Positions 11,128-32,338 of a stretch of DNA of 64,000 bases are shown piece by piece (positions within the stretch are counted from its first letter, which is position 1; every line of letters begins with the position of its first letter). Below the pieces are notes generated by a model that was given only the letters and a program-made list of their open reading frames with translations, was not told the DNA's origin and did not search any database. The translations under genes and the position numbers were made by a program. The stretch lies in the IMG/VR virus record IMGVR_UViG_3300002220_000425, positions 1,989 through 65,988 of that record; one strand, written 5' to 3'. The stretch comes from a virus. Lineage: Duplodnaviria; Caudoviricetes.

Positions 11128-11168
11128 AAACAAAAAACCCCTGCCAGACAATTATCCGGCAGGGGTGA
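11128..11168 (-). terminator. Intrinsic terminator overlapping a promoter motif
   Basis: Minus strand CCCCTGCC-GGATAATTGTCT-GGCAGGGG-TTTTTT. Confidence 0.7.
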
Positions 11169-11170
11169 CA
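11152..11170 (-). promoter_or_regulatory. Phage promoter-like motif
   Basis: TGTCACCCCTGCCGGATAA(T) upstream of the VWA gene. Confidence 0.75.
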
Positions 11171-11198
11171 GGGTGGTCTAGTTGCGTGAGCGTGCAGG

Positions 11199-11423
11199 TT
11201 ACTCGTCAACGACGATCAAAGCGGTTGGTGCGTGCGGCATGTCGCTGTGAAAGCCGTCGATCTGCTGAATTGCTTCCCACTGTTCAGTGCTGATTGTCGC
11301 GATACCCGGGTGTCGCAGTTGCACCATCACGCTTGGAAATTGCTCGTCCATCTCGGCGAAGAATCCTTCAGCGTTGTATTCTTCGTCGCACTTTACGTTC
11401 AGTCTGAGTTGTGGAGATGCCAT
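11199..11423 (-). CDS. Hypothetical protein
   Basis: Probable start MASPQ with AAGGACA upstream. Confidence 0.55.
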   Translation of the reverse strand: MASPQLRLNVKCDEEYNAEGFFAEMDEQFPSVMVQLRHPGIATISTEQWEAIQQIDGFHSDMPHAPTALIVVDE

Positions 11424-11505
11424 TGTCTTGTCCTTGGGTTTTGTTTGTGAACAGGGGACGCGGGCCACCGTTGACCCGCCGCACAGAGCCTAACCCCACT
11501 CTGCC

Positions 11506-11832
11506 TTACGCATCGACAACACGAAACGCAAAATGCTCTTGGATTGCCTGCTGAGCGTCAGTCTCGTCGCTGTGAGCTTCGAGAAAGCCGTAAGCATCAT
11601 CGCCACACACTGGCTCGATGCCCTCCGAACCGCCACGCCCGTTGTTGCCAACAGAAACGGCCATGTCGGTCATTGGGCCGCCAACGTGATGGATAAACCA
11701 AGAGCCGTTCTTGGTGACGTACAGCGTTTTCGTGCGGTAGTTGAAGTCGCTCGAATACGCTCCGTTGCTGTGGAAGAACACAAGGGTTGCGGTTTCAGTG
11801 TTGTACCGCTTGCCATCGATCACTTTGATCAT
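11506..11832 (-). CDS. Conserved phage hypothetical protein
   Basis: MIKVIDGKRYNTETA motif, familiar from small phage proteins. Confidence 0.65.
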   Translation of the reverse strand: MIKVIDGKRYNTETATLVFFHSNGAYSSDFNYRTKTLYVTKNGSWFIHHVGGPMTDMAVSVGNNGRGGSEGIEPVCGDDAYGFLEAHSDETDAQQAIQEHFAFRVVDA

Positions 11833-12033
11833 CAGAGAATCCTGCCCGACTTGGGCTGTTGCGAGTAGCTGACGTGCTACCCTGGGGAAAACATGCAGCG
11901 ACATGCTGCCAGTAACATTATGCACGGACTTGGGACCGTTCGCCAGTATCGACTGGCAAGTGCATTACACACGGGACGCAACAAGCATCCCGTGTGCCCT
12001 CTGCAACGTGGAGCGGCGTCACAGAGGCCCCGT

Positions 12034-13122
12034 TTACCCAAGCGATTCCATGGTCTGGAGTCGCAGTGTCTTCATCATGCCCACCACTCTCTCGTGAGCC
12101 TTACCAGCACGGTCGCCGGTCATCTTGTCGAGTCGTTTGGTGATGTCGGCCAACTTCTTGGCAGTCACCGCAGACGCTTCAAGGTTCCGTGGATCTGTCG
12201 TACGGACCAACTCGGTTGCATCGGCCAACAACTGAGACGCAAGCAACTGGCTTGGCTTGGCGATCTCAGCAACAGCATCGGCTACCGTGTTCATCTGATC
12301 GGGGTGGCTCCACCAAACATGACTGAGCAACGCCAGGTCGTCAGTCTCAACCGTCATACGCCCCTCAAGCCATGCAGCACACTGAAGGGCGGCGGCGGTC
12401 TTGCGGAGTCGTCGATCACCAATGACAACACCTTGAGACGTAACACGCTGTCGGATGGTCGCCATTGCCGACTTGGTGTCAGCGTCAAACGTCACGAGTC
12501 GGGCTTCGTTGCGGGCGGCTTCCAGTTCGGCCATGGTCAACGTCACGGACAAGCTTGGCGTCAAGCTTGGGCTGAACATCAAACGCTCAATGTCGGCTTC
12601 GCCAGTGACGGGCTGAACAAGTTTGCGAAACAGGAATCGGTCGAACAACGCACCAAGCTCTTTGGCTTCAGTGGGCCATTCGTTGGACGCAGCGATGCAC
12701 AACTGCAATGGGCAGCGCATGGTCACGTCACCGTTCTGAAAGGTGCCCTCGTTGAGAATCTTGAGGGTCGTGTTCAGGATCGCACTGGACGCTTTGAACA
12801 CTTCGTCGAGAAACGCAACTTGGCATTCGGGAAGCATGCCAGTCGTGATACGGCGGAACACGCCAGTCTTGAGAGCCATCACGTCAACGGCGCCGTGGAC
12901 TTCTTCGGGCTTGCTGAACTTGTTAAGCAACACGCTGAACTTGCTACAGTCCAGAAAGCTCACGATCGAATCAGCCAACAGCGACTTGGCAGTACCGGGC
13001 GGGCCAACGAATACGGCGTGTTCGCCAGCAACAAGTGCAACCAACGCAATCTGAATCTCGTCATCGCGGTCAATGAGTGCCGCGTTAAGTTCATCGCGGC
13101 ATGTTTGAAACTTGTGAATCAT
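12034..13122 (-). CDS. MoxR/RavA-like AAA+ ATPase
   Basis: GPPGTAKS, AFLDEVFKASSAILNTTL..LNE, ASNE, LFDRFLFR, GDRRLRK; start MIHKF after GGAG. Confidence 0.9.
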   Translation of the reverse strand: MIHKFQTCRDELNAALIDRDDEIQIALVALVAGEHAVFVGPPGTAKSLLADSIVSFLDCSKFSVLLNKFSKPEEVHGAVDVMALKTGVFRRITTGMLPECQVAFLDEVFKASSAILNTTLKILNEGTFQNGDVTMRCPLQLCIAASNEWPTEAKELGALFDRFLFRKLVQPVTGEADIERLMFSPSLTPSLSVTLTMAELEAARNEARLVTFDADTKSAMATIRQRVTSQGVVIGDRRLRKTAAALQCAAWLEGRMTVETDDLALLSHVWWSHPDQMNTVADAVAEIAKPSQLLASQLLADATELVRTTDPRNLEASAVTAKKLADITKRLDKMTGDRAGKAHERVVGMMKTLRLQTMESLG

Positions 13123-13179
13123 CTTGTGCTCCAAGACGGGTTAGAAAATCGGCACCAGGACTGTCCCGGCTCACTGGAG

Positions 13180-13198
13180 TTATCCGGCAGGGGTGACA
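13180..13198 (-). promoter_or_regulatory. Phage promoter-like motif
   Basis: TGTCACCCCTGCCGGATAA(C) upstream of the AAA gene. Confidence 0.75.
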
Positions 13199-13239
13199 GG
13201 CCGCTGAAATGTGCGTTTACGTGCGGGTGCGCGCGTAAC

Positions 13240-13268
13240 AAAAAAACCCGCTCGGATAACCGAACGGG
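13240..13268 (-). terminator. Intrinsic terminator
   Basis: CCCGTTCGG-TTAT-CCGAGCGGG-TTTTTTT on the minus strand. Confidence 0.7.
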
Positions 13269-13298
13269 GTGAGGGTGAAACGTTACAGGGCGTAACGT

Positions 13299-14147
13299 TT
13301 AAGCGTTTGCGGGTTCAGTCTGAACCGTGTGAACCTTCTCAACAAGCTTGGCCTTGGCAGCGTCGATCTGCTTGAGCAGTTCTGCTTGCTCCGAAGACAG
13401 GTACTCGGCATAGCACTCTGCTTTGTGCTTGATTTCCTGCCACTTTTTGATTCCACGTGTCATCGTCGTGGTACGAGTGGTGTCGTCCCAACCGTCAACA
13501 CACTCGTTGAGTTCGTCGAGGATTGCACGCAAGCCGCTGGCAACGGCTTCCTTGACGCTCTTGTTGCCGTCAGAAGTACCTTTCGGGACAGGGAATCGCC
13601 ACAGCGAGCCACCCATCGCCTCAATAAACATCTGGACCTTTGCGGTAAAGCCAGCATGTGCTTGGGGCGTAAAATAGGCAATTCCGCGCCGGGGATTGAT
13701 TGGGAACAAGTCAGCGTTGTTCTTGAACATGGTTTGGACCATGCGGGTAATGTCACTGGCTGTTCGCACTTGCATGGCATGGGCATAAAGCTTGCGAGCT
13801 TCAGTCTCGACTTCAAGCGATTCACTTTGAATGTCGCCAGTCTTGGTGTCGAGGATAACACGGCACTCGTACTGGAAGTCCATTGTCTCGCCTGCGATCT
13901 GCTTCTTGGTAAGCTGGAAGGTGATCGTCCCGTCCTTGCCCTGCTTTACCTTGTCGATCGATCGGTTTTCCTTCAAGTGCTTTGTGGCACGAGTGAACGC
14001 CGATCGGCTGTTCAAATCCTTGGCAACGCATGGAAGCCCTGCAAGTTCCAAGGCTTGACGGATGACGGCAATGTCGATCTCGCCTTCGCCAGTGTCCCAA
14101 GTAACGATCTCGCCAAGCAAGTGATCTGGTGATGTTGTAACGCTCAT
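13299..14147 (-). CDS. DUF6744-like protein
   Basis: LLGEIVTW, RSAFTRA, LFPINPRRGIAYFTP, SVKEAV..GL; sits upstream of the AAA/VWA pair. Confidence 0.6.
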   Translation of the reverse strand: MSVTTSPDHLLGEIVTWDTGEGEIDIAVIRQALELAGLPCVAKDLNSRSAFTRATKHLKENRSIDKVKQGKDGTITFQLTKKQIAGETMDFQYECRVILDTKTGDIQSESLEVETEARKLYAHAMQVRTASDITRMVQTMFKNNADLFPINPRRGIAYFTPQAHAGFTAKVQMFIEAMGGSLWRFPVPKGTSDGNKSVKEAVASGLRAILDELNECVDGWDDTTRTTTMTRGIKKWQEIKHKAECYAEYLSSEQAELLKQIDAAKAKLVEKVHTVQTEPANA

Positions 14148-14213
14148 TTTGCTGCTCTCTTTGAACGGGGTTTGAAAGTGGCGGCGACGTGCCGCAGAGT
14201 CGGCTCACTCCAG

Positions 14214-14232
14214 TTATCCGGTGAGGGTGACA
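14214..14232 (-). promoter_or_regulatory. Phage promoter-like motif
   Basis: TGTCACCCTCACCGGATAA(C). Confidence 0.75.
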
Positions 14233-14274
14233 GCGGCCCTTATTCGCACACCTATGCGGACGCACGCGCGAAAC

Positions 14275-14307
14275 AAAAAAACCCACGTGCCGCATGACAC
14301 GTGGGTT
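14275..14307 (-). terminator. Intrinsic terminator
   Basis: ACCCACGTG-N8-CACGTGGGT followed by a T run on the minus strand. Confidence 0.7.
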
Positions 14308-14321
14308 AAGTGTAACGCTAG

Positions 14322-14522
14322 TTAATTCTTGTTGCCCCACAAACTACCAACGTCCGCAATCTCCTTACGGACGATCTTGGTAGTCGGCGGTGCGGTGAAC
14401 AACAACCTTGCACCCTTGCCCTTGGCCTTGATTACTGTCACTTGACACGGGCCATCGATCAGTACGGATTCGTCGATGTCACGTGACAACACGAGGTTTT
14501 TCAGTTCAGGATTCTGCGACAT
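14322..14522 (-). CDS. csrA: CsrA-like RNA-binding protein
   Basis: LVLSRDIDESVLIDGPCQVTVIKAKGKGARLLFTAPPTTKIVRKEI aligns by eye with CsrA, including the Arg44-equivalent (IVRKEI). Confidence 0.8.
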   Translation of the reverse strand: MSQNPELKNLVLSRDIDESVLIDGPCQVTVIKAKGKGARLLFTAPPTTKIVRKEIADVGSLWGNKN

Positions 14523-14524
14523 GG

Positions 14525-14743
14525 TTACTTCCCTGTAGGTGGTTGTTGATTACGTTCCAATCTGGCTACACGCTTGCTAAGCAGTTCAAGCCTTCTTTGG
14601 ATCACACGCATGATGTTGCGATCCTCAGCCTTCTCCGACCGCATTTCCTCAAGCCCTTCGTCATGGGCTTGGAGAACGTGGTCCATCTCTTGCAGTTCGT
14701 CAGCGACGAGCCGCTTCAGTTCTTTGATTTCCTCTTGATCCAA
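14525..14743 (-). CDS. Small coiled-coil hypothetical protein
   Basis: 72 aa, heptad pattern, tightly coupled to neighbours. Confidence 0.6.
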   Translation of the reverse strand: MDQEEIKELKRLVADELQEMDHVLQAHDEGLEEMRSEKAEDRNIMRVIQRRLELLSKRVARLERNQQPPTGK

Positions 14744-14744
14744 G

Positions 14745-15095
14745 TTAATCCTCTTCCGGCAGCATTACCGTCATGCCGCCCTTGTCGTTGGGTTTGATGA
14801 AAACTGTTCCGGCTACAGTGTGATTAAGCTTGGCGAACGATACGCCTTCGGGGTGCTTTCGCATGAGCTTCTGGACTTGCCTGATACAGTCCATGAGCAA
14901 GGGGACGAGGCACTGTTCGTAAGTGCGTCCATCGAACTCCGAGGCGGTTTCGCACGCCCCGTGAACGCCACTGGTGATCAACAGCCAAGGCCAGCGTTCA
15001 GGGTACGGGTGAATGAGAACGCCATCGTCAATCGCTTGCTCAGTGGTGTACACCGAGATTGGCTCAAGGCCAAAGAACGGATTGTCTTCGTGCAT
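14745..15095 (-). CDS. Hypothetical protein (DUF6573-like)
   Basis: ISVYTTEQAIDDGVLI motif. Confidence 0.5.
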   Translation of the reverse strand: MHEDNPFFGLEPISVYTTEQAIDDGVLIHPYPERWPWLLITSGVHGACETASEFDGRTYEQCLVPLLMDCIRQVQKLMRKHPEGVSFAKLNHTVAGTVFIKPNDKGGMTVMLPEED

Positions 15096-15451
15096 CAGTA
15101 TGCTCCTACGGATTGGCAGGCATGGTCGATCATGCCCACGGCGGTCATGATTCGGGACTTCTCACATACGGATTCGTCAGAGCCTTCTCCGACGATCATA
15201 AAGCGGTGGCGCATGGCCCAGATTTCGTTCAGTGCTTCGTTGTCGATCGTTCCGCCAAACGTGAACGTCTGATAGGCGATCAACTGTGCCATTTCAAACA
15301 TCGTGCAGCAAACGGGCTCGAATCCGTGGCACGCGAATCCGTCAAACTTCGTCTGCTTCATGAACTCGCACAGTTCAAGCGGGATGTCGCTCTGTGCAAG
15401 TGCCAATGCTCGGCTGAACTCAGCTTTGCTCATGTGTGGTGCTTTTGCCAT
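15095..15451 (-). CDS. Hypothetical protein
   Basis: Probable start MAKAPH after AGGGA; first gene after the promoter motif. Confidence 0.55.
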   Translation of the reverse strand: MAKAPHMSKAEFSRALALAQSDIPLELCEFMKQTKFDGFACHGFEPVCCTMFEMAQLIAYQTFTFGGTIDNEALNEIWAMRHRFMIVGEGSDESVCEKSRIMTAVGMIDHACQSVGAY

Positions 15452-15505
15452 GTTGTTCCCTGTCGGTGGACTGGACTGGACCGGGACAGTCCCGGCTTGC
15501 ATCAG

Positions 15506-15524
15506 TTATCCGGCAGGGGTGACA
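15506..15524 (-). promoter_or_regulatory. Phage promoter-like motif
   Basis: TGTCACCCCTGCCGGATAA(C). Confidence 0.75.
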
Positions 15525-15529
15525 CTGCC

Positions 15530-16072
15530 TCAGAACGGGTGCTCACAATGTTCGGCAATCACTTCGAGAACGTGATTCTCTTCGTCTTCGGATAGCCTGC
15601 GAAACTTCATGATCTTTCTGTTCCATGAGCAAATAGCCTTAACGCCAGAGCGTTTGCCTTGCTCGACGTGCGCCCACAAGCCAGGCATGTTCTCAAGCCT
15701 AAAAACAATACCGACTCTCATAATTGCGATATGGAACGCCTTGAAGGCGATTGGCGTATCGAGCAAGCCGCTAAGCTTCTCTCGCTTCTTGGCCTCTTTG
15801 AGTTGCTTCTTGGCTTGAGCTTGCTCCCACTCGGCCTGTCGTTCGCTTACAAGCTTCCTGTAAGCCTCAGCGTACTCAATCAGCTTGTCTCGTTGGCTTT
15901 CGGGTGCTGGTGCAGCAAACGCCTTCTTGGACTGCATGTTGCTGTACTCTACGCCTACTTCGATCTTCCCGGTGAAGAACGACGAGGCAGGGACGTACGG
16001 TTCACCATTGACCATGTAGAAGCAATCATGGCCAAACAGTTGTCTTGGGATTCGTTCTATCTTCTTAGGCAT
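15530..16072 (-). CDS. Hypothetical protein
   Basis: 180-aa ORF overlapping the upstream stop. Confidence 0.6.
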   Translation of the reverse strand: MPKKIERIPRQLFGHDCFYMVNGEPYVPASSFFTGKIEVGVEYSNMQSKKAFAAPAPESQRDKLIEYAEAYRKLVSERQAEWEQAQAKKQLKEAKKREKLSGLLDTPIAFKAFHIAIMRVGIVFRLENMPGLWAHVEQGKRSGVKAICSWNRKIMKFRRLSEDEENHVLEVIAEHCEHPF

Positions 16073-16700: not shown

Positions 16701-17351
16701 TTAATCGAGCATCGCCCCGCTGGCGATCTCCTGTAGTGCTTTCCGCATGTTGAACTTGGAATCAGCCAACAGTTGCAGGTAAGCGTCAAGCGGCTTGCCA
16801 TCGCATTCGTGCTTTCGTGCAATCGACTGAAGCCGCTCAGCCATCGCAATTACCGTTTCCTTGTCCAGTTCAAGCTTGAGGCAAATTGCCCGGCTCAGGA
16901 AAGGGCAAGCGTCAAACTTCGTGTCAAACAAGAGTTGTTCACCCTTGTTGGTTGTCGTGAAGATCCACGTGCTGTTGCGTTGAACCGCAGGGTCTTCGAG
17001 TACCGTCTGTAACGCGGACACAATCTTCGAGGTCAACGTGTGAGCCTCATTGACGATGAACGCAAACTGACCGAACAGCGATGGTGCAAGGGCTTTGCGA
17101 TACCACTCGTCCAGCATTTCGGTCAAAAGCTTCTGTGCGTCGATCTCGTACGTGCAACAGTCTGGTGCAACGTGAGATGCAATGATCTTGGCGAGCGTTG
17201 TCTTGCCGGTGCCAGACTCGCCCGTGATCCAATACACCTGACCGTCCAGGCCAGTCGTCTTGAGCGTACAGGCCAAACGTTTCAGCGTCTTCTGGTGCCC
17301 AGCAACCTCACTGAAGTTGCGTGGGCGTTCTACTTCGTACAGTGCTGTCAT
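16701..17351 (-). CDS. Clamp-loader (DnaX/RFC-like) AAA ATPase, short
   Basis: LYEVERPRNFSEVAGHQ, GESGTGKTTLAKI, IVNEAH, FLSRA. Confidence 0.8.
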   Translation of the reverse strand: MTALYEVERPRNFSEVAGHQKTLKRLACTLKTTGLDGQVYWITGESGTGKTTLAKIIASHVAPDCCTYEIDAQKLLTEMLDEWYRKALAPSLFGQFAFIVNEAHTLTSKIVSALQTVLEDPAVQRNSTWIFTTTNKGEQLLFDTKFDACPFLSRAICLKLELDKETVIAMAERLQSIARKHECDGKPLDAYLQLLADSKFNMRKALQEIASGAMLD

Positions 17352-17401
17352 CTAAAGCTCCATTGACAGGGTTCGTTGCCGGGGATGTCCCGGCAGTGTT
17401 G

Positions 17402-17420
17402 TTATCCGGCAGGGGTGACA
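17402..17420 (-). promoter_or_regulatory. Phage promoter-like motif
   Basis: TGTCACCCCTGCCGGATAA(C). Confidence 0.75.
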
Positions 17421-19351: not shown

Positions 19352-19618
19352 TCACTCAGCGTCATCGTCTTCGCCATCACCAAACAGTTCTGTCCATCCA
19401 ACTGGCGAAGTGCCAGAGATCAAGAACTCACGATCTTCGGCAGGCAGTTCTGGGAAAGCCTCTTGGATTCGTGCTCCACTGGAGTATCGATCAAACCCTT
19501 CCATTGGCACTTGGACCGAATAGGATTCGCCAGTGACAATGCAAGGCCCGGTGAACACAAGTGATAGTTCAGGTGCGACAACGGCACGGCAGTGGCAAGC
19601 GGCTAAGGCATATCGCAT
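19352..19618 (-). CDS. Conserved phage hypothetical protein
   Basis: GARIQEAFPELPAEDREFLISG..P.GW..LF motif. Confidence 0.65.
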   Translation of the reverse strand: MRYALAACHCRAVVAPELSLVFTGPCIVTGESYSVQVPMEGFDRYSSGARIQEAFPELPAEDREFLISGTSPVGWTELFGDGEDDDAE

Positions 19619-19687
19619 GACTGATGCTCCATTAGGGTTAAACGTTACAGGGTGAAACGGACCAGAACCGGCAGTCCGTCACCACAG

Positions 19688-19706
19688 TTATCCGGCAGGG
19701 GTGACA
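19688..19706 (-). promoter_or_regulatory. Phage promoter-like motif (first of the leftward early region)
   Basis: TGTCACCCCTGCCGGATAA(C). Confidence 0.75.
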
Positions 19707-20746: not shown

Positions 20747-21048
20747 ACTACAAGAGCAAGCGGAAAACCCATTCAAAGCGACAAGAACGCATCGCGCGAT
20801 ACCAAGAGGATTCACGCAAGAAGGTGATCGAACCGATTCCCTCAAAGCCCGGTACAGTGTTCGAGCCAATGATCTGCATGGATTGCGAGACGGTCTACAC
20901 AACTGACGACACCCATATCCGAATGAACTCCAAGGTGTTGTGCATCAAGTGCGAGGGAATGCTGATGTTGTTGCACCAATACGACGCAGACCGGGACGAG
21001 TGTGAGCTTGACGTTCGCTTGAAGGAAACGCTTCGGACCACGCTGTAA
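20743..21048 (+). CDS. Zn-ribbon hypothetical protein
   Basis: CMDC...CIKC. Confidence 0.6.
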   Translation: MNYKSKRKTHSKRQERIARYQEDSRKKVIEPIPSKPGTVFEPMICMDCETVYTTDDTHIRMNSKVLCIKCEGMLMLLHQYDADRDECELDVRLKETLRTTL

Positions 21049-21068
21049 CGTTGCATCCCCCTTCCATC

Positions 21069-21087
21069 TGTCACCCCCAGCGGATAA
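21069..21087 (+). promoter_or_regulatory. Phage promoter-like motif with downstream palindrome
   Basis: TGTCACCCCCAGCGGATAA(T); CCTGTAACGTTACAGG at 21101-21116. Confidence 0.75.
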
Positions 21088-21147
21088 TGCTAGTGACAGC
21101 CCTGTAACGTTACAGGCTGGGTTTAGAGCTTACTAAAGGGGGACGGG

Positions 21148-21747
21148 ATGATGGGTGAGTTTGTGTTCGATGTGCTGTTCTGGTCGGTTTACACAGTGAT
21201 CATCATGTGGAGCGTCTGGGTTATTACTCAGAAGCACTACGGCAGGAAGTTGAAGCAGGAAAGAGCCTGGACGGACGAGGCTATTGCCGGTACTGAACGC
21301 ATCGCGAAGGATCTGGAGTCAACCCGTAAGCTGAACGTGGAAATTGCCAGGGAACTGGATACAAACAAGCACGAAGTGGGCAGGCTTGCCGATCAGCGCA
21401 AGGAATTGCTTCAGAAGTTGCTTGGACAAGGCGGCGATAACAAGCGGCTACAGGACGAACTTGACAAGGCCGTAGGTGAACGCGCGGGAGTGGTGAAGGT
21501 GAACCATGAACTAGCCGAAGAGAACACCCAACTACGTGCCAAGCTTGAAGACACCGAGAAGGCATTGGACATCAACGACAAAGCTGGTTCGGCAAAGTTC
21601 ATGAAGTTCATGGAAGCCAAGAAGCTTGTTCGTGCAGAGGTGGCCTATCACCTTAGCAGGGCGAACGAACTGAACGTATGGTTGAAGGCGAGCGATTTCC
21701 AACTCGACAAAGCCCCCGAGAACGCTCCAAAGCCCAATAGTGACTGA
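21148..21747 (+). CDS. Membrane-anchored coiled-coil protein
   Basis: N-terminal hydrophobic segment VLFWSVYTVIIMWSVWVI then long coiled coil. Confidence 0.65.
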   Translation: MMGEFVFDVLFWSVYTVIIMWSVWVITQKHYGRKLKQERAWTDEAIAGTERIAKDLESTRKLNVEIARELDTNKHEVGRLADQRKELLQKLLGQGGDNKRLQDELDKAVGERAGVVKVNHELAEENTQLRAKLEDTEKALDINDKAGSAKFMKFMEAKKLVRAEVAYHLSRANELNVWLKASDFQLDKAPENAPKPNSD

Positions 21748-22253: not shown

Positions 22254-22464
22254 ATGGGTGCATATCGGCCAGCCTAGACTGGTCGATTTTCGTGTTCTCT
22301 GGCGGCACTCCAGCCTGTCCTGTCCTGCCCCTCCCGTATGTGGTATGCCGCTGGCACTTGGCGTATCGGCTATCCGTTGGCGATCGGCCTATCCGATTGG
22401 CGGATTGGCGATCGTCTGCGGCACTGTGCTGTGAGCCGTGCGCCGCTGCGGTCGGTCAATTCAG

Positions 22465-22483
22465 TTATCCGGCTGGCATGACA
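22465..22483 (-). promoter_or_regulatory. Phage promoter-like motif with no downstream ORF
   Basis: TGTCATGCCAGCCGGATAA(C). Confidence 0.65.
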
Positions 22484-22587
22484 ACGGGGGCAGGGTGCAA
22501 CGTTTCAACCTTGCCGATTGTGGCCCACTGCGTGAGCCGTGCGCCACTGTGAACGCTCGGCATGGCGTTGGGATCATGAAACGAATA

Positions 22588-22617
22588 AACCCCGCCAGAT
22601 ATAAACCTGGCGGGGTT
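22588..22617. terminator. Stem-loop terminator
   Basis: AACCCCGCCAG-N8-CTGGCGGGGTT. Confidence 0.6.
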
Positions 22618-23014: not shown

Positions 23015-23428
23015 TTAGCCGGGCAGTGCGGACAACAGTTCCTGCAATTCAAGTTTGCGGCGCTCGTCTGCGCTCACTGTTGGCGAAACTGCCACGTGTG
23101 CCGATGCGCCCTTGCCGGTTTTCTTGGCCTCGCGCTCTGCCTTCTCACGCAAGACGCGCTCTTCTTCGCCTGGTTTGTCAAGCTTCTCGAATGCTTCCTT
23201 TACCGCTGCCTTGAATCCGGCAAGATCACGCAGAATCGTCAACGCCTGTTCGCCATTCAGTGACCAAGGCCCACCTTGCACTTTGACGCCGCATGACAAG
23301 CCACCTCGGCCCATGAACGTTTGCGCCTCAAACGTCTTCTTCGGCGCTTTGCCCTTCTTCGCTGCCAGCAGCGCTTCAAGTTCGGCAATGGTGATGTCTT
23401 TCGCTGCGGTCTGTGGTTGTGTGCTCAT
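23015..23428 (-). CDS. Hypothetical protein
   Basis: 137 aa, TGGAG SD, downstream of a promoter motif. Confidence 0.65.
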   Translation of the reverse strand: MSTQPQTAAKDITIAELEALLAAKKGKAPKKTFEAQTFMGRGGLSCGVKVQGGPWSLNGEQALTILRDLAGFKAAVKEAFEKLDKPGEEERVLREKAEREAKKTGKGASAHVAVSPTVSADERRKLELQELLSALPG

Positions 23429-23507
23429 TCGTGAGACTCCAAAACGGGTTTGAAACGGGGATGATCAGGCTGAAACGTTACAACCTGTCATGATTCGGAC
23501 AATGGTA

Positions 23508-23526
23508 TTATCAATCAGGGGTGACA
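23508..23526 (-). promoter_or_regulatory. Phage promoter-like motif embedded in the sigma gene's stop region
   Basis: TGTCACCCCTGATTGATAA(T) encodes V-T-P-D-stop. Confidence 0.6.
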
Positions 23527-24083
23527 AGCGATTGCATGTCACGCAATTTATCGGGGGCGAATAGGGCAAAGCGTTGGCGTAGGGTAGCCTTGTATCGTTG
23601 CACTTTGCGTACGGAGCAACCGAGTTCTGCCGCTGCCATTTCGTTGCTCATCTCCAGAAACAACCGTCCGTCAAACGTCATGCCAGATAGAACAATCGCT
23701 GCGCGTAGTTCGTGAACGTCATGGCATAGTCGCGATACGTAGCTGGGCAGTCGGTTGTCGCTGGGTTCGGTGTCGGCCACCAGCGACGAATCAACGGGAT
23801 CGTCTGCGAACGGCGATAGGTGGCCATCATGACAAGCTTGTTGCTCAATCCAGTTGATTAACACTGCATGCACTGAGAGATAAACCGCGCCACGTATTGC
23901 CGATGCTGATTTTGGCGGTCGTTTGGCGATCGTTTCTAAGGCTTTAATCAAGGCGTCTGTGCTGAGGTCGTCAATGTCTGCGGGTTGCATGGTCATGCCA
24001 TACAATCGCAACTTGCGCGTTAGCCGTCTGCGGGCCATTCGCTGAAGTTTCAAGGCGTTGTCGTTGTCAATTTGTGGGATCAC
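23511..24083 (-). CDS. ECF/sigma70-like factor
   Basis: Region-2-like ADIDDLSTDALIKAL; region-4 HTH MSNEMAAAELGCSVRKVQRY; 190 aa. Confidence 0.65.
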   Translation of the reverse strand: MIPQIDNDNALKLQRMARRRLTRKLRLYGMTMQPADIDDLSTDALIKALETIAKRPPKSASAIRGAVYLSVHAVLINWIEQQACHDGHLSPFADDPVDSSLVADTEPSDNRLPSYVSRLCHDVHELRAAIVLSGMTFDGRLFLEMSNEMAAAELGCSVRKVQRYKATLRQRFALFAPDKLRDMQSLVTPD

Positions 24084-24834
24084 GGTAACGAAGTCCTATA
24101 GGCAAGGGAACGGGAACGAAGTCGGCGAACATATCGCCAGTAATATCATGATACGCTGTAACGTTACAACAGGGCAAGGGGATAATCGGCATAAAACGTC
24201 GTAGACAATGAATAAATAAGCGGCCCGTTCTGCCTATTGGCTTAATGCCATGTCATCCGATCTCCGCTCGGCTCACGAATCAACTAAAGAGAACAGACCG
24301 GGAATACACTATGGGATCATGCACGCAACCACTGAAGCCACCACTACACACAATCACCACACAATCACCCACCAATGCCAATCACCCACCAATGAACGCG
24401 ATACACGTAGCATTGCCGCGCCGCTGACTATCCGTATGCCGATCGTCTGCGCCGCTGCGGGGAATGGGTGTTAAAATGGGGGAGATTCTTGGTAAACTGG
24501 GCAAGATAGGCAAGCTATAGCTGCAATGTTGAGCCCTGTTATTAGAAAACTGCCGCAAAATGCCACGTTTTCCGCAGTCCAATCCGATCGACTAGCCCTA
24601 TGCCGTAGGGGGCAGGGTCCCTTTGGCGGCACGACTATTAGTTACGTTCCTCCCCGAACTTTTTCCACCAAAACCGATTTCCCCACTCGGGGGAGAAAAC
24701 CAGTATCCGTGAATCTGCCGCAATTTACGGGCTAAAATGAAAAGCGGGTGTGGTATGCTCACGGGGCGGGATAGACGTGCCGCGAGGTTGCTTCTGCCAC
24801 TGGAGGGGATGAAACGTTACAGGCTGTCATGCTT

Positions 24835-24853
24835 TGTCATGCTTACCGGATAA
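24835..24853 (+). promoter_or_regulatory. Phage promoter-like motif
   Basis: TGTCATGCTTACCGGATAA(T), preceded by a second TGTCATGCTT and a palindrome at 24809-24823. Confidence 0.7.
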
Positions 24854-24873
24854 TATGGATGGCGGGAGAATGG

Positions 24874-24938
24874 GAGGCGGCGGGGCGGGTCCGTAATGCG
24901 AGCAATCGCTAAGGTTGGTTCGATCCCAACACGCTTCA
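24874..24938 (+). ncRNA. tRNA-like element 1 (no anticodon loop)
   Basis: GAGGCGG/ACGCTTC-A acceptor, CGG-N7-CCG, GCGA-GCAA-TCGC, GTTGG-TTCGATC-CCAAC. Confidence 0.6.
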
Positions 24939-25007
24939 CTGTGTGAAATTAACGTCGAGATTCACCGCAAAAACAATACAACGTGACAGCCGGAGAGACG
25001 GCACTTA

Positions 25008-25075
25008 TGAGGCGGCGGCGTGGTGCCGAGCGGAATTATCAGCCCGCAGCCGCGAGTTCGATTCTCGCCCGCCTC
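25008..25075 (+). ncRNA. tRNA-like element 2 (aberrant anticodon loop)
   Basis: GAGGCGG/CCGCCTC-A acceptor, CGGC-GTGGT-GCCG, GCGG-N10-CCGC, GCGAG-TTCGATT-CTCGC. Confidence 0.7.
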
Positions 25076-25106
25076 ATTTAGAGGGTGTTCTTTATGGAGA
25101 CTGTTG

Positions 25107-25478
25107 ATGATTCGATGGGGAGACGAGCAGAAGTCGGCATTGCGTGAGTTTAGTGCTGCTGGTTGGACGCAGGGGCAGATAGCTCGTGCGATGAGTTGCA
25201 GCACGACGACGATTGCCGGGAAGCAAGCTGAGTTGGGTATTAAGTCGATGCCCCGTGGTCGTCGTTCTTACGTGCTTGGCGGCGAGAGCAAGGGTGGAGC
25301 GGTATTTGTGCGGTTGCCGAAGGGGTTGCACCGTGAGTTTGCGGAGATGTGTTTGGATCGCATGGAGTCGATGAATGATTGTTTGGTGAGGCTGATGGCG
25401 GGAGAGGTTGCAGCGTTTCGGGGTGAATTGGTTGAGTCTGAAGCGTTGCAGGGTGAAACGTTACACGGTGGAGAATAG
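25107..25478 (+). CDS. HTH plus ribbon-helix-helix regulator
   Basis: WTQGQIARAMSCSTTTIAGK (GcrA-like HTH) and VFVRLPKGLHREFAEMC..SMND (RHH). Confidence 0.65.
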   Translation: MIRWGDEQKSALREFSAAGWTQGQIARAMSCSTTTIAGKQAELGIKSMPRGRRSYVLGGESKGGAVFVRLPKGLHREFAEMCLDRMESMNDCLVRLMAGEVAAFRGELVESEALQGETLHGGE

Positions 25479-26818: not shown

Positions 26819-27050
26819 GATTGAGAAACGGTTGAACCGTCAGGCCAAACTGAAGGGCACTGACCAGTGGTTCGACATGGGGAACGTGTCTTTCGAGGAC
26901 GCGGCGATAAACTTGGCCGAGAGGCTTGGGCGAGGTGCGGACAAGATTCACGTGACATTGCGAGATGCTGACGATCTTGCGACGGAGTTTGACGTGACGG
27001 TGGAATCGACGCGGGCGTACCGGGTTGTTGGCTTACGTGGCGGTGAGTAA
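26796..27050 (+). CDS. Hypothetical protein
   Basis: 84-aa ORF in the operon. Confidence 0.55.
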   Translation: MSGSQAVEIEKRLNRQAKLKGTDQWFDMGNVSFEDAAINLAERLGRGADKIHVTLRDADDLATEFDVTVESTRAYRVVGLRGGE

Positions 27051-27377: not shown

Positions 27378-27820
27378 TGTTTGAAAAGGAACTTGACCCC
27401 ACAGCGCCGATAGAGATCTGCGGAAAGTGGTTTATCTGGGATGCACGTACACGGCGCCATCGACCAGCAGAAGAGCGGCCAGCCAAGCCAGCCAGGACCC
27501 GCAAAAGCGAAGCGGGAGATCGAGATTTGGCTTCCGTTCCTGTTGCCCCTGAACAACGAACTCGCCGGAAAAAACCGCTTCGTCGTAGCCAGGATTGCGA
27601 AATTAGTCAAAGAGTTGACATCGAGATCCATACCTACCGAGTACACTCATGCGACACCGATGCCGTCTTTATTAAACACGCGCTCGACGCAATCGTTGAT
27701 CGACGAGTTATATCGCAAGACACTGCGGAGAAAATCGCGTCAATCAAGTTCCTCGCCGCCGAAAAAGTCGCGACGTACGAGGAAGAAGGACACTTAATCA
27801 AGATCATCGCCGCCGAATGA
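27374..27820 (+). CDS. rusA: RusA-like Holliday junction resolvase
   Basis: DIEIHTYR..CDTD...KHALDAIVD..VISQD. Confidence 0.65.
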   Translation: MMFEKELDPTAPIEICGKWFIWDARTRRHRPAEERPAKPARTRKSEAGDRDLASVPVAPEQRTRRKKPLRRSQDCEISQRVDIEIHTYRVHSCDTDAVFIKHALDAIVDRRVISQDTAEKIASIKFLAAEKVATYEEEGHLIKIIAAE

Positions 27821-27831
27821 TTCGGGCGGGA

Positions 27832-28983
27832 TCACGCAACTTCGGTTTTTTGCTTTCGTGCTAAAACGATCTGTTGCATGTTGGCTCGCTTCATTTCGAT
27901 GATGCGAGTCATCTTCTTTTTCTTCTCTTGGCCGTACGCGAATACCGTATCCCTTCCCGGTATTTCTGCCGGATTGGTGATGCACTTGTCACGGTAGAAG
28001 TGTTCCGCTGCGTAGATTTCGTAAACACGCTTCTGGCTGTTTGTTCGCCATCGTTCTTCGTTGCGTCGATCGGTTGGCGGCTTGCCCCCGCTCTTGAGCA
28101 AGTGCAATTCCCAAGCGATATCCTTCCAGTCCATGCAAAGCTTGTCACGCATGAAGATGATCAGGGCCATTTCGCGGCGTTGCTCAACGTCCCACACAAG
28201 CTTGCGGGTTCTGCGGTTGACGATCGGGCCAAGCTTGGTGCCAGCGGGCGGTGTGGTGAACGAATTACCTTTGATGCGTGCCGTTCGACATGCCTCCTTC
28301 ATTCGGGCACTGGTTGTTTCCGCTTCAAGCTGAGCGAACCCGGCAATGAGCGTCATGAACATCCGGCCAATCGGAGAGTTTGGCTGGAAGTGCTGACCGC
28401 CAAGGTTGAGGATGTGCAAGTTGATGTGGTTGTTTTGGAACCAATCGTTGCAGTACAGAAAGTCACGTGTGTCGCGGAATGCACGATCGCACTTGTCGAT
28501 GATGAAGTGGTCGCCCTGCTTGATCTGTGCAAGGATCTTGCGAACGCCAGGACGGGTCATGAACGGACGTAGCCTTGCGGACCTTGCCTGTCCGTCGTCA
28601 ATCACGCCGGCGAAGCGAACCTTCTGCGGTTGAAGCTGAAATCGGAAGTAATTCTCCATGCGAAGCTTTTGATCAGGGATCGATGAATCCGCCTCGTACT
28701 GGTTCTTGGTGGACACGCGAGCGTAACCGTAAGCACACGGTTGACCGTCTTCAGGCTTGGCGTAGAAGGGCCGCTGAACCTCTTCGCCGGCTGACGGAGA
28801 GCGGTATCGCTTGGGTGGAACCTTGATCAATTCGTCAAACTGTCTCAGTTCTGCGACTGTTCCTGCTTCTGGAATCTGCAAGGTTTCTTCGGTAATTTCG
28901 TTTTTGATTCGCTCGACTTCGGCGTAGACCATCGCCCGCAGTTCGTCGATTGTGTAGATCATCCAGTCTTTGAAGATTGCCAT
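27832..28983 (-). CDS. Serine recombinase (resolvase domain) with N- and C-terminal extensions
   Basis: YGYARVSTKNQ, SIPDQ, RPG, GDHFIIDKCDRAFRD, AGFAQLEAETTSARMKE. Confidence 0.88.
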   Translation of the reverse strand: MAIFKDWMIYTIDELRAMVYAEVERIKNEITEETLQIPEAGTVAELRQFDELIKVPPKRYRSPSAGEEVQRPFYAKPEDGQPCAYGYARVSTKNQYEADSSIPDQKLRMENYFRFQLQPQKVRFAGVIDDGQARSARLRPFMTRPGVRKILAQIKQGDHFIIDKCDRAFRDTRDFLYCNDWFQNNHINLHILNLGGQHFQPNSPIGRMFMTLIAGFAQLEAETTSARMKEACRTARIKGNSFTTPPAGTKLGPIVNRRTRKLVWDVEQRREMALIIFMRDKLCMDWKDIAWELHLLKSGGKPPTDRRNEERWRTNSQKRVYEIYAAEHFYRDKCITNPAEIPGRDTVFAYGQEKKKKMTRIIEMKRANMQQIVLARKQKTEVA

Positions 28984-29052
28984 AGATTTGTCCGTAATTT
29001 TCGGGGAGTTTTGAAACGACAGTGCCGACGATGGCAGTCCGTCCATTTAACT

Positions 29053-29071
29053 ATATCCGGCAGGGGTGACA
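29053..29071 (-). promoter_or_regulatory. Phage promoter-like motif
   Basis: TGTCACCCCTGCCGGATAT upstream of the serine recombinase. Confidence 0.65.
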
Positions 29072-29233
29072 CGGCAGCTTGCTACACCTCCTTATTTTAG
29101 CCTTAGCAAGTCCAAGAAAAAACGCACTTGACTATTGCGATCGCACCTAAACAGGTGTTAAATGAATAGTGACAGCCTGTAACGTTTCAGGCACAGCGGT
29201 CCAATCGCCCAAACATTGTGGCAGGAGTTTGAC

Positions 29234-30490
29234 GTGGCAGAAGAAGCGACGATCGTAGACACACCGGCGAACGACAGTGATGCAACACTGAGCGATGGCG
29301 ATTTGTCTCGGATGTTCACGGACGCTGCTGGCGTTGCACCCGGGCCTGCTCCAGACGTAGCCGATGAAACTTCGGTTGTATCGGACGAAGCTCCGGTCGT
29401 AAGTGACCAAGTTCCGGTGGCTGACCCGGCGACAGCCGCGAGCGAGCCTGCTGCACCTGTTGTTGAACCGCCAACGATTCAGTCTGCTGAGTTGTTGGCA
29501 GCGGCCAAGGATCTTGGCATTTCGACCGATGGCATGAAGACCGCAGAGGATCTCGCACTTGCGAGTTTGCGGAAGCTTCACGAATCGGCACCAATGTTGA
29601 ACTATGCTCAACAGTTGTTGCCCTATGCCGATCAGATTCGCGAGTTCTTTGCTTCACGTGAAGGGCAAGCGGGTCAACAGAATCAGCCTGCTGGACAGCA
29701 GGAAGAGTGGACGCCCGATTCGCACTTCAATCAGCTTTGGGGCGGTCCACAGTGGGACTCGCAGTTCACTGAAGCGATCAATTCTGGGATGGTCCAGCGC
29801 GATCCAGCGACTGGGTTGTGGCAATCGGCACCTGGTTACGAAGTGATAACGGGCTCGATGATTGAGCCGCTGAATGCCGCTCATCGTCACGCGACCAGTT
29901 TTTGGACAGAGCTTTCCCGCAGCAATCCGTATCAGAAGTTCTACCAAGCGATGGAAGAACCGATGCGTCGAGCGTGGAAGCAGGACATGGAAGAGTTCTT
30001 GCAAACGCGGGAGCAAGAGGCCGCGACGAGCAACGACATTGCTCAGTTTGAAAAGCAGCATGAAGCGTTGTTGTACAAGACGAATCCTGTCACGGGACGG
30101 CGGGAACCAACTGAACATGGCAATGCGTTGTTGAGTTCGATCGATCGAATCAACCGTGCCCAGACGCCGCAGGAAAAGCTTGCAATCGCCGTTGAGTTGG
30201 CGGGTATTGGCAAGCAAGCCGCGCAGCAACCAGCGCAGCCAGTTGCCGCAGCGCAACCCGCACAGCCCGCGCCGGCTGTTCCTGCACAACAAGCCGCTCC
30301 TGCACAGCCAGTTGCAGCGGCACCAACAGATCAACGGTCGCAACAGTCGTTCCTTGATGGGGCTTTGAGAGTTGCATCTCACAGCCCTGGTTCAAACGGT
30401 TCGGGCGATGCAATGGGCACCGCTCCTGTCCAAATGGAAGCAAATGAGTTGGGCAATTTCTTTATTAACCAATTCAGAAGCAGAACGTAA
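29234..30490 (+). CDS. Probable capsid scaffolding protein
   Basis: GTG start after AGGAG; acidic, A/P/Q-rich; immediately upstream of the capsid gene. Confidence 0.6.
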   Translation: MAEEATIVDTPANDSDATLSDGDLSRMFTDAAGVAPGPAPDVADETSVVSDEAPVVSDQVPVADPATAASEPAAPVVEPPTIQSAELLAAAKDLGISTDGMKTAEDLALASLRKLHESAPMLNYAQQLLPYADQIREFFASREGQAGQQNQPAGQQEEWTPDSHFNQLWGGPQWDSQFTEAINSGMVQRDPATGLWQSAPGYEVITGSMIEPLNAAHRHATSFWTELSRSNPYQKFYQAMEEPMRRAWKQDMEEFLQTREQEAATSNDIAQFEKQHEALLYKTNPVTGRREPTEHGNALLSSIDRINRAQTPQEKLAIAVELAGIGKQAAQQPAQPVAAAQPAQPAPAVPAQQAAPAQPVAAAPTDQRSQQSFLDGALRVASHSPGSNGSGDAMGTAPVQMEANELGNFFINQFRSRT

Positions 30491-30501
30491 AAAGGTGACT
30501 T

Positions 30502-31617
30502 ATGGCCGACGAATGGATCGGTATTGTCAATTCGACACGTGCCCGGTACATGAAGGGCGCGTCGGACTTGACAATCCGCAAACGACTGTTGCTTGCAATG
30601 TTGCGCAAGCGTGGTCGCTTTGAGTACAACTGCTCAGGCGACGAAATGAAGTGGCAGGTTGAGTTCAGCCAGCCTCCTGTCAGTGCTCACGCGGACGGCG
30701 GTGTGGTTGACTTCGCGAACCACGATGCGTTCCGTCAGTTGTCGTTGGATTGGCGCGGTTACATCGCGACCGATTCGATGAGCAAGAAGCAAGTCGGTAT
30801 GAACAAAGGCGATGAAGCCCTCATCCGTTTGTTCAACACGAAGCAAGAGCGATTGCGTAAGTCGATCGACAACAACTTCGCCGGCGAGCTTTACCGAGAC
30901 GGTTCGGCAGCGGGACGTGAAAACAACATTCACGGCCTTGAAACGTTCTTTGGTGCGGGTACGGTCACTGCTGGCGACCGCATTGCGGCTCCGAGCGACA
31001 CTTACGGCAACACTGCGTTGTCCACCGTTCCGGCGACGTACGGCGGTTCGTGGTCGAGTGCGTTGGCCACCAAGCCGAACGCTTCGTTGGCGACTGACTG
31101 GCCTGACGGTCAAGGCGATGTGGAGTACGACTTCAACAGTCCGAAACTCATCAACTGGAGTTCGACTGCATGGGGAACTTCGTCCACGACTTGGGAAGCC
31201 AATGCGTGGCGTGTGATTTCTCAGGCGATCACTTGGTTGACCACGACGGGTGGCGACGATGGCATGCCGTCGTTGATCCCGATGGCGCCGAACATGTTCC
31301 AGGGCTACAAGAACGCTCAGGAAGTGAAGACCCGAATCAACATTCCTCACAAGGAATCGCAAGATTTGGGATTTGGCAACACGCTCAACCAAGACGGTTG
31401 CGGGCTGTACCCTGACTTCGATTGCCCTGTTGATACGGCTTACTGCCTCAACGTGGCGATGATCACGGTTTGCAGCTTGTTTGACGAGTTGTTTTGGATG
31501 GAAGGTCCAGACAAGGATCCTCGCACTGGCTGGGGCTATTTGTGGGGCACTGGTTTCTTTGGGAACGTGAAGTACGAATCACCGAAGCATTTCGGCAAGA
31601 TCAAGAACTTCGCTTGA
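30502..31617 (+). CDS. Major capsid protein
   Basis: 371 aa; DLTIRKRLLLAML, DSMSKKQ..N.GDEALI.L..K...L.KSIDN.FAGELY.DG, HGLE; followed by a hairpin. Confidence 0.8.
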   Translation: MADEWIGIVNSTRARYMKGASDLTIRKRLLLAMLRKRGRFEYNCSGDEMKWQVEFSQPPVSAHADGGVVDFANHDAFRQLSLDWRGYIATDSMSKKQVGMNKGDEALIRLFNTKQERLRKSIDNNFAGELYRDGSAAGRENNIHGLETFFGAGTVTAGDRIAAPSDTYGNTALSTVPATYGGSWSSALATKPNASLATDWPDGQGDVEYDFNSPKLINWSSTAWGTSSTTWEANAWRVISQAITWLTTTGGDDGMPSLIPMAPNMFQGYKNAQEVKTRINIPHKESQDLGFGNTLNQDGCGLYPDFDCPVDTAYCLNVAMITVCSLFDELFWMEGPDKDPRTGWGYLWGTGFFGNVKYESPKHFGKIKNFA

Positions 31618-31686
31618 TGAATCGGGCGGTCGCGTAAGTCGCGCGGCCTTTGGGACTTTTTTTAAGAAACGTATTGGAGATTCACC

Positions 31687-32292
31687 ATGGCCGATAAGGT
31701 CAGTTCATTACCGCGACGGGGTAAAACCTATAGCGGTGGTACTCCAAGCTCGATTGGTCAATCCGTTGGGCTTGAAGGGTACATTCAGGAGTTCAAAGAC
31801 GAGGTTAGCACTGGCGCGGGCGTGCTCAGCCAGCGATCGGGCCAAGTCACAAAGGCGATGCTTGTTCGCAATGCTTCGGGGTTTGCCTTGCTTCCCGGTC
31901 GCAGCGTTGCGTGGCAGGCTGGATTTCGCGGGCGACGGGTTGCGGGTTACACCGCGACCACTGCTCAAGAGGTTGCTGGTTACGTGGACGACAAGTTGCC
32001 ATCGACGGGCGTTGCTCAAAACGACTTGTTCTGGTTGCTCCGTAAAGGGCCAGCACTGGTCAAGACACCAAACGCGGGTGGTGCTGCAAACGTGTTTGCT
32101 GAAGGTGACGTGCTTGTTGCGTTGACTGCGGCAACGACGGGAGCGGTGACTGCGGGGCGCCCTGCGGTTCTCGACCTTGCGGTTGCAACCAACACGACGG
32201 GAGCGATTGTCAACCGAATTGGCCGAGTCATGAGCGCGATGACGACCGCTCAGACGAACGCTGACATGCTGGTTGATTTGGAATTGATGTGA
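31687..32292 (+). CDS. Capsid cement/decoration-like protein
   Basis: A/G/T-rich beta protein right after the capsid gene; VRN.SG.ALLPG, GVAQNDLFW. Confidence 0.6.
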   Translation: MADKVSSLPRRGKTYSGGTPSSIGQSVGLEGYIQEFKDEVSTGAGVLSQRSGQVTKAMLVRNASGFALLPGRSVAWQAGFRGRRVAGYTATTAQEVAGYVDDKLPSTGVAQNDLFWLLRKGPALVKTPNAGGAANVFAEGDVLVALTAATTGAVTAGRPAVLDLAVATNTTGAIVNRIGRVMSAMTTAQTNADMLVDLELM

Positions 32293-32299
32293 TCGGTTG

Positions 32300-32338
32300 C
32301 AGCCTGAAACGTTTCAGGCTGTCACCCTTGGCGGATAA
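32300..32338 (+). promoter_or_regulatory. 22-bp perfect palindrome fused to a promoter motif
   Basis: CAGCCTGAAACGTTTCAGGCTG (32300-32321) overlapping TGTCACCCTTGGCGGATAA (32320-32338). Confidence 0.8.

Follow-up and report, generated by a model that had tools for sequence, protein, structure and literature searches.

Analysis of a 64,000-nucleotide (nt) window of phage DNA, bases 1989-65988 of the 65,988-base-pair (bp) IMG/VR virus record IMGVR_UViG_3300002220_000425 (Caudoviricetes; rated 99% complete), revealed a motif, TGTCAY-N8-GATAAY (Y, C or T), whose 13 copies are probably, as judged from sequence, the promoters of a phage regulon. These promoters would be read by host core RNA polymerase (RNAP) together with a phage-encoded sigma factor resembling the extracytoplasmic function (ECF) type, the product of open reading frame (ORF) 23511-24083. 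The upstream half of the motif most likely lies about one DNA turn closer to the transcription start than in any described promoter of the ECF-like sigma family. No earlier description of TGTCAY-N8-GATAAY was found in the literature searched.

Within the window, the motif gives 11 exact matches against 0.01 expected from shuffled sequences, none of which reached 11. A twelfth copy, at 29052 on the minus strand, reads GATATA and surfaces only when two mismatches are permitted, and a further exact copy lies at genome position 1224 on the plus strand, before the start of the window, which brings the total to 13. Since the relaxed pattern with mismatches permitted gave 18 matches against 11.5 expected, which is chance level beyond the copy at 29052, there is no hidden set of weak copies in the window. 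A preliminary description of this DNA had reported 12 copies, and the count is borne out as the 11 exact copies plus the near copy; its plus-strand coordinates are right and its minus-strand coordinates are one base too high, a trivial difference. Apart from the near copy at 29052, all the predicted promoter copies listed below are exact matches.

11151-11170, minus strand: predicted promoter copy, with a 462-amino-acid (aa) ORF (9699-11087) downstream
13179-13198, minus strand: predicted promoter copy, with a MoxR-like ATPase ORF (12034-13134) downstream and a terminator (13247-13268) upstream
14213-14232, minus strand: predicted promoter copy, with a DUF6744 ORF (13299-14147) downstream and a terminator (14280-14307) upstream
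15505-15524, minus strand: predicted promoter copy, with ORF 15095-15451 downstream and a hairpin starting 9 nt past the hexamer
17401-17420, minus strand: predicted promoter copy, with an AAA+ (clamp-loader-like) ORF (16701-17351) downstream
19687-19706, minus strand: predicted promoter copy, first in the minus-strand block, with an 88-aa ORF (19352-19618) downstream
21069-21088, plus strand: predicted promoter copy, with ORF 21148-21747 downstream and two flanking TGTAACGTTxCA palindromes
22464-22483, minus strand: predicted promoter copy without an ORF behind it, facing a 19-bp repeat and the 3' end of a convergent DUF3268 gene
23507-23526, minus strand: predicted promoter copy over the last codons (LVTPD) and stop of ORF 23511-24083, serving ORF 23015-23428
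24835-24854, plus strand: predicted promoter copy divergent from the sigma gene, leading to a structured tRNA-like region and ORF 25020-25478
29052-29071, minus strand: near copy (GATATA), with a serine-recombinase ORF (27832-29046) downstream
32320-32339, plus strand: predicted promoter copy, the only one facing the head/tail block of about 30 kb, with the palindrome TGAAACGTTTCA abutting upstream

The placement of the copies is that of promoters. Of the 12 window copies, which the preliminary description had called nearly all intergenic, 11 are fully so (binomial P 5e-9, on a hand-curated gene list for 9-33 kb with 83.5% coding), and the remaining one, at 23507, overlaps an ORF end. Every copy is oriented toward the next downstream gene or RNA (n=13). 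Leader lengths, counted to the following start codon, are 38-72 nt; the copy at 22464 is without a downstream protein-coding ORF, as had been claimed. Several copies are closely preceded by strong terminator hairpins (11137-11166, 13247-13268, 14280-14307 and 22588-22617), and an identical spacer is common to seven copies.

Alignment of the 13 sites confines the information to positions 1-27. TGTCA is invariant and position 6 is C or T; C predominates in the 8-bp spacer; 12 of 13 copies have C13-G14; GATAA is near-invariant, with GATAT in one copy, and position 20 is C or T in 12 of 13. Five loosely constrained bases follow the hexamer, and then come T26 in 10 of 13 and G27 in 11 of 13. The TG described earlier at six nt after the hexamer is indeed present in 9 of the 12 window copies (10 of 13 overall), and the continuations GAGCCG or GAC occur as claimed. 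The 45 bp upstream of the motif contain nothing conserved and no element at the normal -35 distance. In every copy, here and in the relatives described below, the two strong elements stand 8 bp apart instead of showing the canonical separation of about 16-18 bp. AT content is 68% at positions 16-28, 27% in the spacer and 8-18% at positions 29-31, and a stable hairpin starts at positions 24-30 in at least five copies.

ECF holoenzymes prefer C-14/G-13, flip one “master” base and contact a T+1/G+2 core recognition element (PMC6372665). For sigma-28, the consensus GCCGATAA extends from -15 to -8, only A-11 is flipped and T-7 is dispensable (PMC12784957). GATAA equals -12 to -8 of this consensus, its A falling at -11, and assignment of GATAAY to -12 to -7 fits the ECF and sigma-28 rules for -14/-13, the -10 element and the start site. 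In this register, C-G plus GATAAY would form the -14/-13 and -10 elements with A-11 flipped, N5 would be the discriminator, and TG would mark the start, about 6-7 nt past the hexamer. The AT-rich zone would thus correspond to a bubble from -11 to +2, TG would occupy -1/+1 or +1/+2, and the hairpins would sit at the transcript 5' ends. TGTCAY would consequently fall at -26 to -21, about one helical turn inside the normal -35 position. The base at -7 (position 20) is C in half of the copies, and such a C would be disfavoured by a housekeeping sigma.

The candidate reader of the motif is encoded within the regulon, and its gene is preceded by a promoter of another type.

23511-24083, minus strand: candidate sigma factor of 190 aa, divergent and two-domain (sigma-2 plus sigma-4, ECF-like)
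24148-24177, minus strand: host-type promoter of the sigma gene, TTGCCC-N18-TATCAT

Several comparisons point to a divergent two-domain ECF-like sigma factor. The NCBIfam sigma-70/ECF model TIGR02937 is matched end to end by all seven family members examined, though with sub-threshold scores (best E 6.7e-5; 17-20 bits, the cut-off being 42.9), and the alignment of residues 30-171 to model positions 21-160 of 165 corresponds to ordinary ECF domain lengths. Pfam Sigma70_r4_2 matched weakly (E 0.079, residues 142-164), and Pfam Sigma70_r2 was not detected in this ORF. In an AlphaFold model with a predicted local distance difference test score (pLDDT) of 63, a disordered linker joins an N-terminal domain of three long helices (pLDDT 75-88) to a helical C-terminal domain. 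The top Foldseek matches of this model are almost all sigma chains aligned at full length, namely SigH, sigma-28, SigE and SigL (E 0.02-0.5), and the nearest ESM Atlas clusters carry Sigma70_r2 and r4; a profile search against PDB sequences returned nothing. Apart from this protein, no ORF of the genome is sigma-like over its full length, a single further match covering a stretch of 23 residues. The family of the protein is tiny, with 9 members among 1.8 billion representatives in an exhaustive profile search. Most large ORFs of the phage genome are without a family match. A promoter for a T7-like RNAP was also considered and set aside, as the 99%-complete genome yielded no candidate for such a gene (PF00940), a search in which control genomes gave no match either.

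The 190-aa ORF has six homologues with 52-86% identity on short metagenome contigs (L009, L011, L012, L018, L019 and L020; a seventh contig, L010, duplicates L009). All six distinct contigs carry the motif at orthologous places, and the 8-bp gap is kept in all copies found. The spacers of the relatives differ (CCCTAACC, GTCTGCCC, GATTGAAC) and the flanks diverge, but both hexamers are retained. The copy at 23507 is found at the same place in L009, L011, L018, L012 and L020, and in L019 as TGTCGC-N8-GATAAA, the variant of the most distant contig, in which the gap is again 8 bp. The copy at 21069 is kept in L009, L011 and L018, the one at 22464 is identical in 20 of 20 bases in L009 and L011, and the one at 24835, together with about 15 bases of either flank, is unchanged even in the distant relative L012. 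In the relatives, C frequently replaces G before GATAA (CCGATAA). The TG at positions 26-27 is shifted or lost in some of them, which fits a start-site preference better than a box read by sigma. Position, orientation, conservation in relatives, the -10 register and the phage sigma candidate together support the proposal of the preliminary description that these are phage promoters.

Beyond this clade, neither a 13-kb megablast query nor tblastn searches with the sigma and terminase proteins gave a match among 50,697 phage records, and no member of the sigma family was found in IMG/VR, JGI metagenome contigs or GTDB genome contigs. The canonical 20-mer had zero matches in IMG/VR and one unrelated AT-rich match in metagenomes. 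Two contigs related through the terminase (L015 and L016, 58-61% identity) are without the motif and without the palindrome of the sigma-gene promoter.

Regarding the supply of the sigma itself, no motif copy precedes its gene. The spacer of its host-type promoter contains the palindrome TGTAACGTTACA (24157-24168), and a TTGAC hexamer, the palindrome and a TAnnnT-like -10 are kept in all five relatives with upstream sequence, which suggests that, for the step dependent on the host sigma, the phage relies on an operator-controlled promoter of the ordinary -35/-10 type. A host-type promoter at the sigma gene and a different signal elsewhere give the layout of a cascade from host RNAP through phage sigma to regulon. 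After infection or induction, the host holoenzyme would fire the TTGAC/-10 promoter with its repressor-type palindrome and the sigma would be made; the phage sigma would then turn on nearly all other transcription units. Its targets would comprise the left-arm recombination and replication genes, the minus-strand accessory genes one at a time, the recombinase, two non-coding transcripts and the single promoter of the head/tail block. In two scans of 9000-48000, E. coli-type sigma-70 consensus promoters were rarer than in shuffled sequence (6 vs 10.5 and 3 vs 8.8).

The palindrome, in the general form TGWAACGTTWCA, lies beside or inside many promoters of the 19-33 kb region, including the spacer of the sigma-gene promoter (24157-24168, 21040-21051, 21102-21113, 22497-22508, 24809-24820, 29178-29189 and 32306-32317), and also occurs in L009, L011, L012, L018 and L019. 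Its presence in the sigma-promoter spacer, in the window and in five relatives, indicates that it is probably the operator of a phage repressor. At 32320 and at genome position 1224 it abuts TGTCAC directly, at about -40 to -29.

The question that divides the candidate mechanisms is which protein reads TGTCAY. Its reader would be either the C-terminal helix-turn-helix domain of the phage sigma, in an unusually near docking position, or a second protein taking the place of -35 recognition. The preliminary description had likewise named an activator and a sigma of unusual geometry as the two options, and there is a slight leaning toward the sigma itself. The strict version, in which the two-domain sigma alone reads a -24/-10 promoter with its sigma-4-like domain on TGTCAY 8 bp upstream of the -10 element, is nevertheless doubtful. 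A separate activator of phage or host origin, reading TGTCAY(CC) and replacing -35 recognition while a phage or host sigma reads only CG-GATAAY, is somewhat unlikely. It gains from the distribution of the 8-mer TGTCACCC, which occurs 13 times in the window, ten times in promoters, once at 56239 and twice in the following element.

9589-9614, no strand assigned: inverted repeat GGGTGACA-N10-TGTCACCC, immediately behind a sigma-70-like promoter (9615-9642, minus strand)

This repeat occupies an operator position ahead of an 89-aa ORF (9299-9568), and there is no GATAA nearby; its arrangement after a host-type promoter suggests binding by a dimeric protein independently of a -10 element. TGTCAY is moreover a half-site of PhoB-type activators (PMC10294691), and an activator site accompanies the 11 late promoters of phage P1 (PMC10695390). 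Precedents for such an activator come from T4 middle promoters (MotA), P1 late promoters (Lpa) and pho boxes (PhoB). On the other hand, each promoter here has a single half-site with no second repeat, and the rigid 8-bp gap with joint conservation of both halves is just as compatible with one reader for the whole site. The search for an activator gave no candidate: neither the 89-aa ORF nor the conserved ORF downstream of the sigma gene gave a family or fold match, the 89-aa ORF and its neighbours showed no DNA-binding signature, and ten other small ORFs gave no DNA-binding family above threshold. The 89-aa ORF is highly conserved in four metagenome homologues (66-98% identity) and consists of three short helices and one long helix.

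Several points weigh against a regulon read by the phage sigma. On RNAP, the sites taken by ECF sigma-2 and sigma-4 do not differ from those in group 1 (PMC6372665), and the divergent phage sigma gp36 of phiEco32 contacts -37/-34 (PMC12276001). As sigma-4 domains in these solved complexes make contact at about -35, and the proportions of the present sigma are those of an ordinary ECF factor, contact of sigma-4 with -24 is without structural precedent. The inverted repeat at 9589-9614 favours a separate reader of TGTCAY. In addition, no single test brings the sigma call above threshold, the quality of its model is mediocre (pLDDT 63), one narrow clade supplies the cases in which sigma and motif occur together, and the host assignment given below is tentative, resting on a tRNA match and one integrase homologue.

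The ordinary ECF proportions of the candidate also bear on a different register, in which TGTCAC would be the -35 element, followed by a 17-bp spacer and an A-n-T-G-A -10 element at positions 24-28, with the start about 15 nt past GATAAY and the invariant GGATAA block serving as a spacer element or regulator site. The distance from TGTCAC to positions 24-28 is indeed ordinary ECF spacing, TGTCAC resembles TGnAAC boxes, and a start near position 35 would let the hairpin at 32320 end only upstream transcripts, as at 11151. This register is nonetheless improbable. Positions 24-28 hold about 3 bits against about 9.5 bits for GGATAA; TG shifts or vanishes in relatives, whereas GATAA is present in every copy found; the alternative “-10” and the bases following it are GC-rich, and it is positions 16-28 that are AT-rich. 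The copy at 11151 is a perfect 20-mer without any of A-n-T-G-A at positions 24-28, and a start at position 35 would fall within the 5' hairpins.

Possible readers of host origin depend on the identity of the host. A tyrosine integrase adjoins a tRNA-Arg(TCG)-like gene (7614-8909). The 3' end of this tRNA matches many phyla, but the longest matches (50-58 nt, identical) are all from Planctomycetota, and a contig of a Planctomycetaceae metagenome-assembled genome (L105) contains a homologous integrase beside the same tRNA. Planctomycetota are thus tentatively proposed as the host phylum, the tRNA and integrase serving as a lead to the host and the attachment site. Five candidate-host genomes (37 Mb) gave one match to the motif and one to its reversed control, and 401 Planctomycetota genomes gave 0-8 matches per genome, the same order as the reversed control; sampled matches had no phage context. 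No sigma homologue was found in the Planctomycetota genomes examined. A host housekeeping promoter is rejected, because candidate hosts contain the motif no more often than background and the phage has a TTGAC/-10 promoter where it needs the host sigma; the observation that the preliminary description had named as fatal to its proposal, the same motif as the ordinary promoter of host genes, was not made.

Reading by an alternative host sigma, either sigma-28 (FliA) through CGATAA or sigma-54 through a -24/-12-like layout, with the 190-aa protein unrelated, is very improbable. GATAA is the sigma-28 -10 core, and CGGATAA here and CCGATAA in relatives agree with it, but the TAAA-type -35 about 15 bp upstream is missing (PMC12784957), and the sites were rejected as sigma-28 class 3 promoters. 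TGTCAC and the sigma-54 box TGGCAC differ in a single base and would share the position -26 to -21, but the near-invariant doublets GG at -25/-24 and GC at -13/-12 read GT/GG in 13 of 13 copies, and sigma-54 promoters were likewise rejected. Against both stand the lack of enrichment in the 401 genomes and the position of the phage sigma gene in the middle of the regulon with its own host-type promoter. A Pho box was rejected as well, as two direct TGTCAY repeats 11 bp apart are absent and nothing is conserved upstream of the single hexamer. Least probable of all is that the sites are no promoters but a repeated binding site or RNA element (for replication, packaging, antitermination or terminator association): the copy at 11151 does belong to a terminator hairpin, and the spacer identical in seven copies could mean duplication rather than selection, but the strict orientation to downstream genes at leader distance and downstream of terminators, the changed spacers with retained hexamers in relatives, and the AT-rich melting zone with a start-site dinucleotide all speak for promoters.

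Known systems share parts of this architecture. T4 middle promoters are read by host sigma-70 with two phage proteins, MotA binding a box at about -30 and AsiA remodelling sigma-70 region 4. There, as here, a -10 element and a phage-specific upstream box at a non-standard distance replace the -35 element and define a temporal class; however, the T4 box is centred at about -30 rather than -24, and no MotA or AsiA homologue was found here. The sigma-54 -24/-12 promoter is TGGCAC-N5-TTGC. Its upstream hexamer lies at -26 to -21, as does the similar TGTCAY, but the phage sites lack the GG/GC doublets, have an AT-rich -10-type box, and are paired with a phage protein of the sigma-70 family. The activator site of P1 Lpa lies near -22, and the PhoB half-site TGTCAY precedes the -10 hexamer by about 10 bp and substitutes for the -35 element. 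P1 is also a temperate phage with dispersed operators, and its 11 dispersed late promoters combine a -10 element with a close conserved upstream element; this element is a 9-bp inverted repeat bound by Lpa with host sigma-70 reading the -10 element, in contrast to an asymmetric hexamer and a phage-encoded sigma here (PMC10695390). Pho boxes contain two direct repeats 11 bp apart, in contrast to the single half-site here, which is duplicated only at 24835 (PMC10294691). Class 3 flagellar promoters of sigma-28 (FliA/SigD) share the GATAA core and its register (-12 to -8), extended by C/G-rich sequence, do not need T-7 and start about 7-8 nt downstream (PMC12784957). They differ in having TAAA(G) at -36 to -30, where nothing is conserved in the phage copies with TGTCAY at -26 to -21, and sigma-28 has a three-domain group 3 build, unlike the two-domain phage protein of 190 aa.

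Phage sigma factors with their own small set of near-identical promoters are well known from phiEco32 and 7-11 (PMC4331800, PMC8948821, PMC12276001). Like the candidate here, phiEco32 gp36 and its counterpart in Salmonella phage 7-11 are very divergent two-domain sigmas (a sigma-2-like N-terminus, a sigma-4-like C-terminus and a long linker). Their promoter copies are likewise few and highly conserved, and expression of the sigma gene begins with the host holoenzyme, as is proposed for the present phage. A single strong element, AATGTA centred at -11.5, characterises the gp36 promoters, and -37/-34 is contacted by the C-terminal domain (PMC12276001), whereas here a second invariant hexamer lies just 8 bp upstream of the -10 element. 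The present phage is furthermore temperate with operators, no partner like gp79 was recognised, and tblastn against the 50,697 phage records detected no sequence relationship to the phiEco32 and 7-11 sigmas. What is distinctive here is the invariant 8-bp gap, the combination of a sigma-28-like -10 core with an ECF-like protein, and the probable planctomycete host. The rigid gap does not suit the known spacing of sigma-2 and sigma-4 on RNAP and would call for closer docking of sigma-4 or an unrecognised activator. If the sigma alone reads both boxes, this would be a new promoter geometry for the sigma-70 family, in a probable Planctomycetota phage. To our knowledge, very few phages of Planctomycetota have been studied, and there is almost no promoter biology for them. 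Each phage sigma/promoter pair could also serve as an orthogonal switch for synthetic biology, and the promoters would provide a full transcription map of an otherwise unannotated phage.

Individual copies have features of their own. The spacer CCCCTGCC of the copy at 11151 doubles as the 5' arm of the terminator hairpin 11137-11166 for the upstream gene. A 19-bp, iteron-like tandem repeat (2.3 copies, 22358-22402) lies downstream of the ORF-less copy at 22464, which may fire into a replication origin or yield antisense RNA against the DUF3268 gene. The local tandem duplication of the half-site at 24835 is missing in the relatives. The structured tRNA-like region behind this copy (24855-25090) contains no tRNA according to ARAGORN, and Rfam gave a sub-threshold match similar to transfer-messenger RNA at 25047-25117; Rfam found nothing else behind the two non-coding promoters. 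At the near copy 29052, the first ATG of the serine-recombinase ORF (29046) coincides with positions 26-28, the predicted start site, and the Resolvase domain begins only at residue 105, so that either the mRNA would be leaderless or the true start codon would lie further downstream. The copy at genome position 1224 has a T-run and a palindrome upstream and the left-arm operon downstream. The copy at 32320 is followed by a further element.

32345-32385, plus strand: strong hairpin with a 14-bp stem (folding energy of the stretch about -29 kcal/mol) and TTATTTTG after it

This hairpin starts at the predicted start site of the copy and may be a promoter-proximal terminator; if it terminates, late expression would need antitermination, as at lambda pR'/tR'. 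Finally, the copies split at position 20: GATAAC is found in six minus-strand copies, four of which have no palindrome within about 50 bp, and GATAAT is found at 11151, 21069, 23507, 24835, 32320 and genome position 1224, five of these six being beside palindromic operators. The two groups could represent two temporal or regulatory classes.

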